Assembly (NCBI GenBank): GCA_021813335.1
Contig: JAKALC010000011.1
Location: 1-13,981 of the forward strand
DNA length: 13,981 nt
Reading direction: 5' to 3'
Origin: a bacterium
Lineage (GTDB): Bacteria; Patescibacteriota; Minisyncoccia; Phycocordibacterales; SBAW01
Shown here piece by piece: positions 2,256-11,104 of this stretch. The notes below the pieces were generated by a model. That model was not told the origin of the DNA and did no database searches. It worked only from the letters and a program-made list of their open reading frames with translations. The position numbers were made by a program, and so were the translations under genes. Position 1 is the first letter of the stretch, and every line of letters starts with the position of its first letter.

Positions 2256-3177
2256 GAGGCCATCTAAAAACTCATTTCCGGCATCGTGAAAGCTTTTTTG
2301 CATAGCAACGAATGAGTGCGACGGACACAAGCCCTTCATACTGCGCCCGGGTGTGCTCCCAGAGGTAATCGAGCCGTCGTTGCTGATCAAGGCATGCAAT
2401 GGAGCGCTCCACCTTCCAGCGACAGGGTGCATACCTGCGCTCAGCCCGATCATCCCAGAGGCGGGGTGGCTTGTGGCGATTGGCGAAGCCGCGATGATCA
2501 ACTGCGGATTTGATGCCTCGCCTGCGCAACTCGCTTCTGAACTCCGCGCTGTCATAGCCCTTGTCCGCCCGAAGCCGCTTCGGTCTGCGGCGTCGGGTGC
2601 CAACAACAAGCGCATCGATGGTCGGCAGCGCCGAATCAATGTCCGCCACGTTCGCTTTCGTGGTGAGTACGGCAAGCGGCAGACCGTTGCCGTCTATTAA
2701 AATGCTCCGTTTTAAGCCGTTTTTCTTCTTGAATCCCGAGTATCCAACCTGATCGTGACCCCCTTTTTATTCTGTCGAACAGAAGCATCGAGATACGCAT
2801 TCTGCCAGTTGATCTTGCGGCGGCGGTTCAGTTCCATGAGCAGAATGCCGGCCATGGCCGCCCATCGGCCTTCTCGGTGCCACGAAGTGAAGCGATACCA
2901 GCACGTTTTGCCGGAGCCATAGCGCTCGGGTGGGATATCCTCCCAGCGGCAGCCGGTGGAGAGGACATAGAGGATGCCGTTCATCGTTTTGCGGTCATCG
3001 GAACGAGGCCTGCCGGTTCGCGCGGGCACCGGCATAAGCGGAGCGAGGAGGGACCATTCCTTGTCTGAAAGGTCTGACGGGAGCGGTTTGAGAGAAGACA
3101 TGAGCAAAAGTGAGGCGGATAATGCCCCTGCTCCTTGGAACTATTTTAGCATGAAAAGAGAGTTTTTAGATGGCCTC
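2256..3177 (-). mobile_element. IS5-family insertion sequence (IS427/IS1031-like), apparently intact, 922 bp
   Basis: Perfect 18-bp terminal inverted repeats: gaggccatctaaaaactc (2256-2273) and gagtttttagatggcctc (3160-3177). They enclose a two-frame DDE transposase. No unambiguous target-site duplication was seen. Confidence 0.85.
2272..3107 (-). CDS. IS5-family DDE transposase made by -1 programmed frameshift (orfA 2712-3107 joined to orfB 2272-2763)
   Basis: orfA reads LSDKEWSLLAPLMP...GRPRSDDRKTMNGILYVLSTGCRWEDIPPERYGSGKTCWYRF (DUF4096-type N-terminus). The -1 frame opens at 2763 and reads GGHDQVGYSGFKKKNGLKRSILIDGNGLPLAVLTTKANVAD...DKGYDS, typical of IS5 DDE cores. The slippery run AAAAAG-GGGG (minus strand) lies at 2759-2768. 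Confidence 0.85.
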
Positions 3178-3779: not shown

Positions 3780-3877
3780 ATCTCAATCTTAGCAGATTTA
3801 CCTGCCACGAACTTAGACCCTCCGCAGCGCATCGTCGGGCTATGCGTCCGCATACCTCCGATACTAAATACTTCGGG

Positions 3878-3962
3878 CGGAGGAGGTGAGATTCGAACTC
3901 ACGGTGCCTTGCGGCACGCCTGTTTTCAAGACAGGTGCACTAGACCGCTATGCGACTCCTCC
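3878..3962 (-). tRNA. tRNA-Ser(UGA), type II with long variable arm
   Basis: The minus strand reads GGAGGAG TC GCA..TGC A CCTGT CTTGAAA ACAGG CGTGCCGCAAGGCACC GTGAG TTCGAAT CTCAC CTCCTCC G. All four arms pair and the anticodon is TGA. No CCA is encoded. Confidence 0.9.
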
Positions 3963-7634: not shown

Positions 7635-7706
7635 GCCCCCGTAGCTCAATGGACAGAGCCGCGGACTTCTAAGCCGCTGATGTGGGTTCGATTCCTACCG
7701 GGGGCA
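7635..7706 (+). tRNA. tRNA-Arg(UCU)
   Basis: GCCCCCG TA GCTC AATGGACA GAGC C GCGGA CTTCTAA GCCGC TGAT GTGGG TTCGATT CCTAC CGGGGGC A. The cloverleaf closes and the anticodon is TCT. Confidence 0.9.
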
Positions 7707-7737
7707 CAGCTGGTCCGCCCGTCAGCGGACGAGACAG

Positions 7738-7819
7738 GGGCATGTGGCGGAACTGGTATACGCGTACGTCTCAGAAGCGTATGTCGCAAGACGTGAGGGT
7801 TCGACTCCCTCCATGCCCA
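7738..7819 (+). tRNA. tRNA-Leu(CAG), type II
   Basis: GGGCATG ... TACGT CTCAGAA GCGTA, variable arm TGTCGCAAGACGT, GAGGG TTCGACT CCCTC CATGCCC A. The anticodon is CAG. Confidence 0.85.
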
Positions 7820-7834
7820 CACGAAAATAAAAAT

Positions 7835-7907
7835 GCACCCTTAGCTCAGTCGGTAGAGCAGCGCATTTACACTGCGAAGGCCGGGGGTTCGAGTCCCTCA
7901 GGGTGCA
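7835..7907 (+). tRNA. tRNA-Val(UAC)
   Basis: GCACCCT TA GCTC AGTCGGTA GAGC A GCGCA TTTACAC TGCGA AGGCC GGGGG TTCGAGT CCCTC AGGGTGC A. The anticodon is TAC. Confidence 0.9.
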
Positions 7908-7946
7908 CTTGAAACTAAACGCCCGGCGGTCTAGGTTTCCAGGGAT

Positions 7947-8645
7947 ATGACCGAACGCGGGGATCCGCCCGGCGCCGCGTGCGTCGGCATCATTATGGAC
8001 GGGAACCGACGCTGGGCGCGTTCGCGCGGCTTGCCGAGCATCGACGGACACACCGCGGGCTTCGCGAAGGCGAAAGAAATCATCCGCCACGCGTTTTCGC
8101 GCGGCATCGGCACCGCGATCCTCTACGCGTTTTCGACGGAGAACTGGAATCGCGCGCCGGAGGAGGTCTCCTATCTTATGCGGCTCTTCGCGAACGCTCT
8201 TGCGGACGAACTCGCCGAAATTTCCCGGGAGGGCATCCGCATCCGGTTTCTCGGCGACCTCGCGCGCCTGCCGGAGGAGCTCCGCGCCGCCGCGCGGAAA
8301 CTCGAGACCGAAAGCGCCGCGGGCGGCGCGGAGAAGACGCTCGCCATCGCGCTTTCCTACGGCGGCCGCGCGGAAATACTCGCGGCGATGAACCGGCTTC
8401 TCGCCGCGGGGACACGCGCGGTCGGCGAGGAAGAGATGAATGCCGCCCTCTGGAGCGCGGGTCTGCCGGACCCCGACCTCGTCATCCGCACGGGCGGCGA
8501 GAAGCGCCTCTCCGGATTCCTCCCGTGGCAGTCGGTCTACAGCGAGCTTTTTTTCACCGATACGCTCTGGCCCGATTTTTCGCGGGAGGAATTCGACGGC
8601 ATCCTGGCCGGCTTCGCCGCGCGCGAGCGGCGGCGCGGGAAGTGA
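7947..8645 (+). CDS. uppS: Undecaprenyl (di-trans,poly-cis-polyprenyl) diphosphate synthase
   Basis: VGIIMDGNRRWA, AILYAFSTENWNRAPEEV, and the IRTGGEKRLSGFLPWQSVYSELFF and RERRRG tail are all canonical UppS blocks. Confidence 0.9.
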   Translation: MTERGDPPGAACVGIIMDGNRRWARSRGLPSIDGHTAGFAKAKEIIRHAFSRGIGTAILYAFSTENWNRAPEEVSYLMRLFANALADELAEISREGIRIRFLGDLARLPEELRAAARKLETESAAGGAEKTLAIALSYGGRAEILAAMNRLLAAGTRAVGEEEMNAALWSAGLPDPDLVIRTGGEKRLSGFLPWQSVYSELFFTDTLWPDFSREEFDGILAGFAARERRRGK

Positions 8646-8668: not shown

Positions 8669-9391
8669 ATGGAACTTCCCGTCCTCTACGAAGACGCGGA
8701 CGTCGTCGCGGTCGCGAAGCCCGCGGGGATTGCGACGCATCCGGACGGACGCTCGAGCGCGCCGACCGCCGAGGATTGGTTCAAGGAGAAGTACCCTGGC
8801 GTAAAGCTCGAGCGGCCCTATGCGCACCGCCTCGACCGCGACACCTCCGGCGTCCTCGCGTTCGCGAAAAGCGCGCCGGCGCATGAATTCCTCCGCAAAG
8901 CGTTTACCGGCCGCGCCGTGCGGAAAACCTATCTCGCCTTCGTGTACGGCGTGCCGAAAGAACGGAAAGGAACTATCGATTTCGACATCGGCCGCTCGCG
9001 CAAGGACTTCCGCCTGCGGAGCGCCCAGCCGAAGGCGCGCGGGCGCCTGCGCGCCGCGGTGACGCGCTACGAAGTCGTCGCCGACGACGGCGCATACGCG
9101 CTCCTCAGAGTCGAGCCGGAGACGGGCCGGACGCACCAGATCCGCGTGCACCTGAAAGCCATCCACCATCCCGTCGTCGGCGACCCGCTCTACGCGCCGG
9201 AGCGCCCGCCGGCGCTCGGCGCGGAGCGCCTCGCGCTCCACGCCTATGCGCTCGACCTGCCGCTCCCGTCGGGCGGGCAGGCGCGCATCCTCGCTCCGGT
9301 CCCCGCCGACCTCGCCCCCGCGCTCGCGCATTTCCCCTCCGCGCGCGGAAGATTTTCGGAAACTGCAGAAGGGCACCTTCTGCAACTGTAG
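8669..9391 (+). CDS. RluA-family pseudouridine synthase (no N-terminal S4 domain)
   Basis: The start is MELPVLYEDADVVAVAKPAGIATHP. The catalytic block HRLDRDTSGVLAFAK and ETGRTHQIRVHL are present. The last 9 codons and the TAG stop (9389-9391) overlap the structured element described below. Confidence 0.85.
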   Translation: MELPVLYEDADVVAVAKPAGIATHPDGRSSAPTAEDWFKEKYPGVKLERPYAHRLDRDTSGVLAFAKSAPAHEFLRKAFTGRAVRKTYLAFVYGVPKERKGTIDFDIGRSRKDFRLRSAQPKARGRLRAAVTRYEVVADDGAYALLRVEPETGRTHQIRVHLKAIHHPVVGDPLYAPERPPALGAERLALHAYALDLPLPSGGQARILAPVPADLAPALAHFPSARGRFSETAEGHLLQL

Positions 9392-9631
9392 AACCGGTCT
9401 CAAAAATAATGGCCGAGCGAGAGCCGGATTTTTCGAGCGAGAATCGCCGGCGCAGACTGAAACGTATCGAGATACGCTGAAGGCGAGCCGTTGCGGTTCG
9501 GAGCCGAAAAATCCGGTTCGTAGCGGCCACGCATTTCCAAAGGTTATTTTTGAGACCGGTTCTAATAATTTTTACAGGTTCCGGCTGCAGAAGGTGCCCT
9601 TCTGTAGCTTCTGCAGCCGGAATTGTTTTTA
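9363..9631 (+). ncRNA. Candidate structured RNA / cis-regulatory leader upstream of rplS (alternatively a MITE/REPIN-like hairpin element)
   Basis: There are three nested inverted-repeat pairs. A is 9363-9384 with 9586-9606 (21/22). B is 9389-9409 with 9544-9564 (21/21). C is 9421-9435 with 9505-9519 (15 pairs including one G-U). A small core hairpin is cgtat/atacg at 9462-9475. The strand is assigned only from the downstream terminator. Confidence 0.4.
9581..9631 (+). terminator. Intrinsic-terminator-like hairpin 30 nt upstream of rplS
   Basis: A perfect 13-bp stem ccggctgcagaag (9581-9593) / cttctgcagccgg (9608-9620) with a 14-nt loop is followed by aattgttttta. The 5' arm overlaps the segment complementary to 9363-9384. 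Confidence 0.6.
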
Positions 9632-9660
9632 GCAGGAGCGCGTGGTAGAGTGCGCGAATT

Positions 9661-10176
9661 ATGCAGAAGGTCATCACGCCCGTGAACGTCGAAGGACGCG
9701 CGAAACTCGGCATCCGCCCGGGAGATACCGTCCGCGTCGTGCAGAACATCGTCGAACTCAAGAAGGGCCGCGGCACCGACAAGAAAGAGAAGACCGTCAA
9801 AAACGCTCGTACGCAGGCGTTCGAAGGTCTCGTGCTCTCCGTCAAGCACGGCACGGAGCCGGGCGCCACCTTTACCGTCCGCGCGGTCCTTTCGGGCGTC
9901 GGCGTGGAAAAGACCTTCCCGCTCTATTCCCCCGTCATCGATTCCATCGAGATCATGAAGCGCTCGAAAGTCCGCCGCGCGAAGCTTTATTTCATCCGCG
10001 AGAAGGCCGCCAAAGAAATGCGCCGCCAGCTGAGGAACGCGCGCATGGTGAACCTCAAGAGCGACGAAGAAATCGCACCCATCGCGCCCATCGCGCCCGC
10101 GGAGACAGCGAACGAAGAAGTCGCTCCGGGGACGGAGCCGGTAGCAGAAGAGAAATCAGCTGAAACAATTAGTTAG
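9661..10176 (+). CDS. rplS: 50S ribosomal protein L19 with acidic/Pro-Ala-rich C-terminal extension
   Basis: GIRPGDTVRVVQNIVE...RTQAFEGLVLSVKHGTEPGATFTVRAV..GVGVEKTFPLYSPVIDSIEI..RSKVRRAKLYFIR is canonical L19. About 50 extra C-terminal residues include IAPIAPIAP. Confidence 0.9.
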   Translation: MQKVITPVNVEGRAKLGIRPGDTVRVVQNIVELKKGRGTDKKEKTVKNARTQAFEGLVLSVKHGTEPGATFTVRAVLSGVGVEKTFPLYSPVIDSIEIMKRSKVRRAKLYFIREKAAKEMRRQLRNARMVNLKSDEEIAPIAPIAPAETANEEVAPGTEPVAEEKSAETIS

Positions 10177-10249
10177 GAAGCGTGGCTCATTTTTTATTTA
10201 TCCACAACTAGTAGACACTATTACCTTGAGGATATGTTACTATATCCAG

Positions 10250-10939
10250 ATGGGGAAGCGCGGCCCAAAGCCTGGTTTTAACGCAAAAAGGAAGATTGCG
10301 GAAACATGGTCGCCTAACCTTGCGTATGCAATTGGACTGCTAGCGACTGACGGCTGTTTATCGCCTCCAGGACATCTTATAGATTTAACTTCTAAAGATC
10401 GCGAACAGCTTGAAAATTTTCGGCACTGCATAGGCATCGACCTGAAAATAACAAAAAAACATTCCGGCGGCAGAGAATATTTAAGAATACAATTCAAAAA
10501 TACTCTTTTTTATAATTTCCTTATTTCGATAGGACTTACACCGGCGAAATCTAAAACGCTCGGCCCACTTGCGATTCCACAAAGATACTTTTTTCATTTC
10601 CTGCGCGGCGTTTTTGATGGCGACGGCAGTACCTATTCATACTGGGATCCTCGCTGGAAGTCGAGCTTTATGTACTATGTATGTTTTGCATCGGCGAGCA
10701 GGTTGTTTATTGATTGGCTACGAGAAAATATTGAGAAGCATCTTTCTGTGAAAGGACATGTGACATCGGCGAAAAGGAATACCTGTTATCAGCTGAAATA
10801 TGCCAAAGGTGACAGTCTGAAGATATTGCGACGAATGTACCAGAATGCGTCCAAAGGATCTTATTTATCGCGCAAGAGATTGAAAATAGAGCATACATTA
10901 CGTATAGTAGGGGAGTCTTTGTCCCCAAGAAGAAGTTGA
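10250..10939 (+). CDS. Free-standing double-motif LAGLIDADG homing endonuclease-like protein
   Basis: Two LAGLIDADG motifs are present: LAYAIGLLATDGCLS and FLRGVFDGDGST. G+C is markedly lower than in rplS. The start was set at ATG 10250 (MGKRGPKPG) rather than the TTG at 10226. The stop lies 9 nt before tRNA-Leu. Confidence 0.8.
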   Translation: MGKRGPKPGFNAKRKIAETWSPNLAYAIGLLATDGCLSPPGHLIDLTSKDREQLENFRHCIGIDLKITKKHSGGREYLRIQFKNTLFYNFLISIGLTPAKSKTLGPLAIPQRYFFHFLRGVFDGDGSTYSYWDPRWKSSFMYYVCFASASRLFIDWLRENIEKHLSVKGHVTSAKRNTCYQLKYAKGDSLKILRRMYQNASKGSYLSRKRLKIEHTLRIVGESLSPRRS

Positions 10940-10948
10940 CAAAGTAAC

Positions 10949-11029
10949 GCCCAGGTGGTGTAATGGTAAACACGTATGCTTGAGGTGCATATGCCGCAAG
11001 GCGTGGAGGTTCGAGTCCTCTCCTGGGCA
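10949..11029 (+). tRNA. tRNA-Leu(GAG), type II
   Basis: GCCCAGG ... TATGC TTGAGGT GCATA, variable arm TGCCGCAAGGCGT, GGAGG TTCGAGT CCTCT CCTGGGC A. The anticodon is GAG with G37. Confidence 0.85.
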
Positions 11030-11037
11030 CAAACAAC

Positions 11038-11058
11038 AAACGCCTTAGGGCGTTTTTT
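11038..11058 (+). terminator. Rho-independent terminator after tRNA-Leu(GAG)
   Basis: aaacgcc ttag ggcgttt is followed by a T-run. The outer flanks (acaaacaacaaa / ttttttgtttgt) extend the pairing. Confidence 0.7.
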
Positions 11059-11104
11059 GTTTGTGCGCAGAGGGCACCAGAGTTCCCAATAAACAGAGTC
11101 AGAA

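Follow-up and report, generated by a model that had tools for sequence, protein, structure and literature searches.

Our analysis of a 13,981-nucleotide (nt) stretch of contig JAKALC010000011.1 (assembly GCA_021813335.1; the whole stretch is called the window below) concerns a strongly structured segment between rluA and rplS, the genes for an RluA-family pseudouridine synthase and ribosomal protein L19, respectively. The window has a GC content of 61%, and the homologues of its L19 and RluA proteins are Kaiserbacteria, Paceibacterota and Minisyncoccota proteins, which places it in a Patescibacteria (Candidate Phyla Radiation, CPR) bacterium. The local order is uppS, rluA, a spacer of 269 nt, and rplS. 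An earlier note on this DNA, made from the letters alone, had described three nested long-range complementarities here (A, B and C) followed by a terminator-like hairpin, and had favoured a riboswitch or ribosomal protein attenuator over a 6S-like small RNA or a non-autonomous mobile hairpin. We find that the nested helices are very probably two palindromic DNA insertions, stacked one inside the other, and not one RNA device. [quoted passage not shown] The features of the locus are as follows (contigs collected for comparison carry L numbers throughout):

7947-8645: uppS.
8669-9391, plus strand: rluA, 240 amino acids (Pfam PF00849, homologues, comparison of C-termini), its 3' end apparently rewritten by the insertions.
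9356-9390, plus strand: left half of the outer module, with local hairpin A (9363-9384); it encodes the RluA tail SETAEGHLLQL, the TAA in its loop holds the TA target of the MITE, and it is absent from relatives.
9389-9564, no strand assigned: the MITE, a 172-bp body (9391-9562) with a TA on each side and no coding capacity, which forms one long hairpin.
9389-9409, plus strand: left terminal inverted repeat of the MITE (5' arm of helix B), TA followed by GAACCGGTCTCAAAAATAA; its first three bases, TAG, are the present rluA stop.
9544-9564, minus strand: right terminal inverted repeat of the MITE (3' arm of helix B), which pairs with the left one at 21/21 positions.
9565-9624, plus strand: right half of the outer module, with motif A a second time, inverted (9586-9607), and the terminator-like hairpin (9579-9622).
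9623-9630, plus strand: the T-run TTGTTTTT, which aligns with the last rluA codons of relatives (TTGCCCTC, TTGCTCTC, TTGCCGTC).
9643-9651, plus strand: an extended -10-like motif, TGGTAGAGT, downstream of the U-run and ending 9 nt before the rplS ATG.
9661-10176, plus strand: rplS, 171 amino acids (Pfam PF01245, Patescibacteria homologues), with its ATG at 9661.

The three complementarities lie where the earlier note had put them. Helix A (9359-9384 with 9586-9611) is 26 nt long and 92% complementary, helix B (9389-9409 with 9544-9564) pairs throughout, and helix C (about 9421-9438 with 9503-9519) is present in the predicted folds. The rluA reading frame closes with the TAG at 9389-9391, and the last codons and stop of that gene do contain segment A together with the initial 3 nt of B. 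The 3' hairpin at 9579-9622 has a stem of 15-16 bp (-35.1 kcal/mol) and a 14-nt loop, and a GC-rich stem-loop standing directly before a U-run (UUGUUUUU) is the geometry of an intrinsic terminator, as had been claimed; the consensus terminator scan, which accepts loops of 3-8 nt, made no call at this hairpin with its 14-nt loop. The whole segment 9350-9665 folds to -153 kcal/mol, compared with -101.8 ± 5.5 for shuffled sequences (z = -9.3), and its opposite strand gives an equal z of -9.3. A DNA palindrome is expected to show such symmetry, which is not specific to RNA. Each arm of helix A is in fact a palindrome itself, CTGCAGAAGG-GCA-CCTTCTGCA, and the minimum-energy and centroid folds both consist of local hairpin A, the B/C hairpin and the 3' hairpin, with the long-range helix A unused; the local hairpin is preferred because the arms of A are self-complementary.

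The B/C hairpin, our MITE, is itself very stable (-90.6 kcal/mol, z = -9.6) and, at 176 nt, too short to encode a transposase; no open reading frame (ORF) of at least 60 amino acids is confined to it. Copies were sought by means of the 19-nt terminus GAACCGGTCTCAAAAATAA in a collection of one genome per species, which gave two complete copies on two contigs of one metagenome-assembled genome (MAG; L005 and L006), and then in a scan of Joint Genome Institute (JGI) metagenomes, which gave two more (L015 and L017). With that of the window there are thus five full-length copies from at least four assemblies, each of 176 nt and 94-99% identical among themselves (for the other four against the window copy, the figure is 94-96%). 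The copies lie between unrelated flanks, and their identity is bounded exactly by the TA on either side (positions 9389 and 9564 of the window). Among the five copies the terminal inverted repeats do not vary, and TA flanks all ten MITE ends, as it does both ends of the related insertion sequence (IS) and the five ends in a Bdellovibrionales MAG that are discussed below. The neighbours are rluA and rplS in the window, rpoD and a helicase gene in L006, genes for an ABC ATPase and an ABC-2 permease in L015, and genes for a P-type ATPase and a PLP (pyridoxal phosphate) enzyme in L017, and the orientation of the MITE relative to them varies between loci. An AGAAGG motif in L017 was considered and set aside as a coincidence, as it lies inside the P-type ATPase gene.

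Assembly breakpoints tell the same boundaries independently. In four independent assemblies (k=141) from the source environment, contigs end at or inside the MITE: L001 starts at MITE base 1; L002 and L003 both start at a point exactly 140 nt (k-1) in from the right edge; and the ends of L026 and L027 are 112 and 141 nt in from the left edge. Such breaks are the de Bruijn signature of a multi-copy repeat and place its boundaries at 9389 and 9564. Further members were not found: an nhmmer search of all collected DNA with a five-copy profile gave no additional or diverged copies, blastn of 9340-9660 against plasmid and phage collections gave no match, and among the viral contigs scanned none had an exact match to the 17-nt terminus GAACCGGTCTCAAAAAT.

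At three of the five loci the TAG made of the target TA and the first G of the element is the stop codon of real genes, four in all: rluA (9389-9391 in the window), rpoD (L006, 5401-5403), and the ABC ATPase and ABC-2 permease genes (L015, 1221-1223 and 1394-1396). When the MITE and one TA are removed in silico, a TAA or TAG stop remains in all four genes, and in L015 the target TA is common to two overlapping, convergent stop codons. These reconstructions suggest that the TAs of stop codons are favoured landing sites in genomes as compact and GC-rich as these.

For the MITE, an element with transposase frames and a matching terminus can be named. A JGI metagenome contig (L022) carries an 870-bp IS5-family insertion sequence whose ends, TA-GAACCGGTCTCAAAAAT...ATTTTTGAGACCGGTTC-TA, have about 17-21 nt in common with the MITE terminus. 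It encloses two overlapping frames, with DUF4096 and DDE_Tnp_1 (Pfam) domains, and both halves match NCBIfam NF033580 (transpos_IS5_3); the architecture is that of the small, frameshift type in this family. In ISfinder terms the small two-ORF type is presumably the IS427-like group. Target duplications in the IS427 group are 2-3 bp, TA or TNA. The MITE interior is unrelated to that of the L022 element. An IS630 origin of the MITE, which its TA flanks had brought to mind, was rejected since the GAACCGG termini in L022 enclose IS5-type ORFs; nor do the TA flanks point to IS630, because the adjacent IS630-type gene in L022 has its own, different termini. That contig is peculiar in itself: positions 1-2175 wrap around on themselves, the IS5-type and IS630-type elements abut at TA on both sides, and the IS630-type transposase ORF closes with a TAG formed by the IS5-type terminus. 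In L022 the assembler has collapsed insertion sequences that are nested or in tandem.

The window has an IS5-family element of its own:

2256-3177, minus strand: resident insertion sequence (922 bp), whose 18-nt inverted repeats (GAGGCCATCTAAAAACTC) are perfect, with a DUF4096 domain in OrfA and a DDE_Tnp_1 domain in OrfB.

Its OrfA is 33% identical to that of the L022 element, and its two frames are probably joined by a frameshift near AAAAAGGGGG. Three European Nucleotide Archive (ENA) contigs (L037-L039) begin about k-1 nt inside its right end, so this element, too, is multi-copy. The IS5 family thus lives in this genome, and the cognate partner of the MITE was not seen there. In a Bdellovibrionales MAG (OZ253553.1; L004, L007, L011, L012 and L014) there are five copies of a different element that also begins with TA and GAACCGGTCTCAAAAATAA; they have a common 66-nt left end and varied interiors, and L007 showed no right terminus that matched with three mismatches or fewer. 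Its presence in this MAG suggests a terminus type that is distributed across phyla.

The outer module is recognized by its second occurrence in the window:

741-803, no strand assigned: second member of the A family, a perfect palindrome of 22 + 22 nt (750-793; -55.1 kcal/mol) whose arms are self-complementary, and which is without the 27-nt central spacer.

When the MITE and one TA are removed from the rluA-rplS spacer, the 95 nt that are left align end to end with 741-803, and the sole large difference is that 27-nt central spacer; we therefore take the outer module (9356-9390 plus 9565-9624) for a second insertion, older than the MITE and belonging to a family of palindromic repeats. The member at 741-803 stands at the 3' end of an ORF (72-737); an ORF on the opposite strand (805-1434 or 734-1504) has its end close by, which the palindrome either just precedes or overlaps. 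These two are the members in the 14 kb of what may be a REP-like family, and no other was found in the other contigs collected.

Comparison with relatives shows what the junction looked like without the insertions. The rluA stop and the rplS ATG are 12 nt apart in L028/29, 15 nt in L024 and also in L034-36, and 24 nt in L030/31; in relatives with the rluA-rplS order the interval is about 12-27 nt throughout. Alignment with these relatives puts the entire extra segment at 9356-9624, and its deletion in silico gives a 236-amino-acid RluA with a normal C-terminus (...HFPSARGRFVFSRSAW, then the stop), the TAG stop lying inside TGGTAGAGT as it does in L028. By its sequence, then, the present RluA tail SETAEGHLLQL would be encoded by inserted DNA. 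The T-run at 9623-9630 appears to be ancestral rluA coding sequence and no part of the insert, as both the alignment with the codons of relatives and the reconstruction indicate. One contig (L023) was considered as an empty site of the same genome and rejected: its 100% identity with the window begins only at rplS nt 90, from where it runs for 3.3 kb, and upstream the contig diverges sharply, both in the first 90 nt of rplS and in its rluA gene, which is of a different lineage. L023 is either a chimeric metagenome contig or marks a recombination breakpoint inside rplS.

The earlier note had also held that only 30 nt lie between the U-tract and the rplS ATG, that this leaves no room for a promoter, and that rplS would depend on read-through. 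The last two statements are undermined by a motif, TGnTAnnGT (mostly TGCTAGAGT), at 9643-9651. It is kept in eight of eight distinct Patescibacteria rplS upstream sequences (the window and the same position in L023-L025 and L028-L034), ending exactly 9 nt before the ATG in each, followed in most of them by GCGCG, and present irrespective of the upstream gene (rluA, a DUF2157 gene or a PhoD-like gene). The rluA stop of several relatives lies inside it. The only match to TGNTANAGT in the 14-kb window is the one at 9643-9651, and no Shine-Dalgarno sequence was found between the motif and the rplS ATG. A reading of the rplS-proximal motif as a small hairpin was discarded, as the stem is lost in L024 and L034 while TGnTAnnGT stays. 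From its likeness to TGnTATAAT (the T, the A and the final T are conserved) we infer an extended -10 element, which would be the own promoter of rplS and would give a nearly leaderless mRNA.

Three other explanations have to be weighed against stacked insertions. The one that survives best is also compatible with them: the module and MITE, once inserted, could have been co-opted as a selected terminator or RNA-processing site that uncouples rluA from rplS. The T-run TTGTTTTT is more T-rich than the corresponding codons of relatives (TTGCCCTC, TTGCTCTC, TTGCCGTC), the promoter-like motif of relatives overlaps their rluA stop, which makes uncoupling at least plausible, and Correia and SPRITE elements have been proposed to act comparably. 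But this is a single lineage, a T-run that had become noncoding could have drifted, and the relatives manage without a terminator here, and we regard such co-option as unlikely.

The attenuator favoured by the earlier note, in which the whole 270-nt structure would be a cis-regulatory riboswitch or L19-sensing leader, with helix A as antiterminator and rplS expressed by read-through, fares much worse, and we consider it highly improbable. It has in its favour a strong hairpin and U-run 30 nt before the rplS ATG, and the two alternative states are indeed mutually exclusive and isoenergetic: forcing the long-range helix A gives -152.7 kcal/mol as against the -153.0 kcal/mol of the minimum-energy fold, a cost of 0.3 kcal/mol. 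As thermodynamics the claim of mutual exclusivity is therefore right, but two such states are a trivial consequence of the palindromic motif A being present twice in inverted orientation. The structure is missing upstream of rplS in every relative examined (eight distinct upstream regions), its core is a repeat that stands beside such unrelated genes as rpoD, ABC transporter genes and a P-type ATPase gene, and a conserved promoter-like motif lies between the U-run and the ATG. Rfam at gathering thresholds found only five tRNAs in the whole window, and in E-value mode, over 9300-9720, gave sub-threshold matches of a generic hairpin or microRNA type only, with no riboswitch, no L19 leader and, even at E = 10, no 6S RNA. 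Nor do the five MITE copies speak for a conserved RNA. In these, 98.8% of cells pair, and none of the 64 predicted pairs is changed on both sides, a comparison that has low power at 94-99% identity. The 15 variable columns are fewer in stems (7/128 paired versus 8/48 unpaired, p = 0.03), and this depletion is not significant when the inverted repeats are excluded (7/86 versus 8/48, p = 0.16), so there is no sign of selection on pairing beyond the ends that a transposase would recognize. Five of six stem transitions are G-U-compatible on one strand, a bias that we treat as not significant.

A structured small RNA gene in the B-to-B hairpin (9389-9564), 6S-like or other, that was mobile or duplicated is scarcely credible, although the hairpin is very stable and a G-U wobble is kept, on the given strand, by five of its seven paired columns that vary, since neither 6S nor any other Rfam family matches even at E = 10, the strands fold equally well as those of a DNA palindrome do, orientation relative to neighbouring genes differs by locus, variable sites show no significant depletion in stems when the terminal inverted repeats are excluded, and the promoter scan made no call for the hairpin. 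Copies at unrelated loci and the lack of conservation, both named in the earlier note as grounds for refutation, speak against the regulatory RNA that it had put first and for the mobile hairpin that it had listed as an alternative; the latter is correct for B and C, and probably also for the outer module with A and the terminator-like hairpin.

Several observations weigh against the explanation by two stacked insertions, or limit it. The L022 insertion sequence has only its terminal bases in common with the MITE and comes from an organism other than that of the source genome, and the terminus of the resident element at 2256-3177 differs from that of the MITE (11/18 positions alike). A single MITE copy lies in the approximately 18 kb of the source genome examined, and the mobility of the outer module is argued from two family members only. 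An exact empty site, that is, the outer module without the MITE (expected ...CTGCAACTGTAATAATTTTTACAGG...), was not found, the nearest RluA relative being only 79% identical, and the relatives without the MITE are also without the outer module; for this reason the choice between TA as a target duplication and TA as part of the element is made on consistency and on the stop-codon reconstructions. The promoter and terminator roles, finally, are read from the sequence and are put forward as likely functions.

The course of events that we propose has two steps, whose order we infer. A palindromic module of about 95 nt (9356-9390 plus 9565-9624) would have entered the last codons of rluA, as comparison with relatives suggests; it would have replaced the RluA tail ...RFVFSRSAW by ...RFSETAEGHLLQL (each followed by the stop) and set its GC-rich hairpin directly before the pre-existing T-run, giving a terminator-like signal. 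The 172-bp MITE would then have entered the TA of the module's new TAA stop, as its copies, ends and flanks indicate, with duplication of the TA and regeneration of a TAG by its terminal G (CTG TAA TAA becoming CTG TAG and the remainder of the MITE). Its inverted repeats of 19-21 bp, with GAACCGGTCTC termini, are presumed to be the binding and cleavage sites of an IS5-family DDE transposase supplied in trans, probably of the NCBIfam transpos_IS5_3 type, which is made from two frames by way of a frameshift. Helices B and C are then the inverted repeats and the palindromic body of the MITE, and helix A is the pairing of the two inverted copies of the outer-module motif. Transcripts of uppS-rluA would have a very stable hairpin at the 3' end and would probably terminate at 9579-9630, and for rplS transcription would start from the extended -10-like motif of its own at 9643-9651. 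The insert would be tolerated and at most insulate rluA and rplS from each other.

Comparable elements are known from other bacteria. The transcribed hairpin of Correia elements (CREE/NEMIS) is a substrate of RNase III and can affect the expression of neighbours, and the pneumococcal BOX, RUP and SPRITE elements are small palindromic repeats that nest in each other and can carry terminator-like hairpins (PMC10969869). Like the Correia elements of Neisseria, the MITE is a non-coding, multi-copy element of roughly 100-200 bp with inverted repeats and TA flanks, which lies at or near gene ends and forms a long hairpin. It differs from them in that its terminal and internal sequences are unrelated to theirs and its host belongs to the Patescibacteria, in that an autonomous IS5-family element with a matching terminus can be named for it, and in number, five copies having been seen as against more than 100 for Correia. 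The small two-ORF IS5 type (NF033580) is like the MITE in its TA flanks and in the terminus, whose 17-19 nt are identical in the 870-bp L022 element; unlike it the MITE has no transposase and an unrelated interior, and the insertion sequence at 2256-3177 has a different terminus. The outer module and MITE are nested in the manner of BOX, RUP and SPRITE, but the sequences are unrelated, the host is of another phylum, and only two members of the outer module family are known. With the L19 leader (RF00556) the segment has in common its position immediately 5' of rplS; unlike that leader it has no Rfam match, is not conserved, does not covary, and is made of mobile repeats. By its sequence features the MITE appears to be like other bacterial MITEs. 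Our search of the literature found no report of MITEs in Patescibacteria.

Other parts of the window deserve brief mention. Three tRNA genes (Arg-TCT, Leu-CAG and Val-TAC; 7635-7908) lie just 5' of uppS, and two others are found at 3876-3962 (Ser-TGA) and 10949-11030 (Leu-GAG); a hairpin with T-runs (11023-11070) lies 3' of the last. Directly 3' of rplS is an ORF of 229-237 amino acids (10226-10939 in the window; also in L001, L023 and L030) with a weak match to LAGLIDADG_3, whose position is kept in L030, where L19 is 79% identical to that of the window; it may be a free-standing homing-endonuclease-like gene. About 70 nt past the right end of the window, at 4662-5597 of L001, a 311-amino-acid protein with HTH_38 and rve domains is encoded, which we take to be an IS30-type domain pair. 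With the IS5-family element, the MITE, the palindromic module and this gene, the region has dense mobile DNA for a small genome.

A wider idea may be stated, and we hold it to be doubtful: the TA-targeting MITE and the A-family module could together form a layered system of gene-end elements in compact, GC-rich Patescibacteria genomes, which would favour the TAs of stop codons, restore the stop with the element's own terminal base, and supply hairpins for termination or processing, in which case the rluA-rplS insert would be a domesticated insulator and not inert selfish DNA. The main value of the present analysis is corrective, in that a convincing terminator/antiterminator fold at a ribosomal protein gene very probably consists of stacked mobile palindromes, and this should warn those who search for regulatory RNAs by their structure. 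The analysis also documents, in the Patescibacteria (CPR), an IS5-related family of MITEs and a second family of palindromic repeats. If our reading of the TGnTAnnGT motif is true, L19 would be made from a nearly leaderless mRNA across the group. By supplying the stop codon itself, the MITE would be able to live in genomes that have almost no intergenic space.

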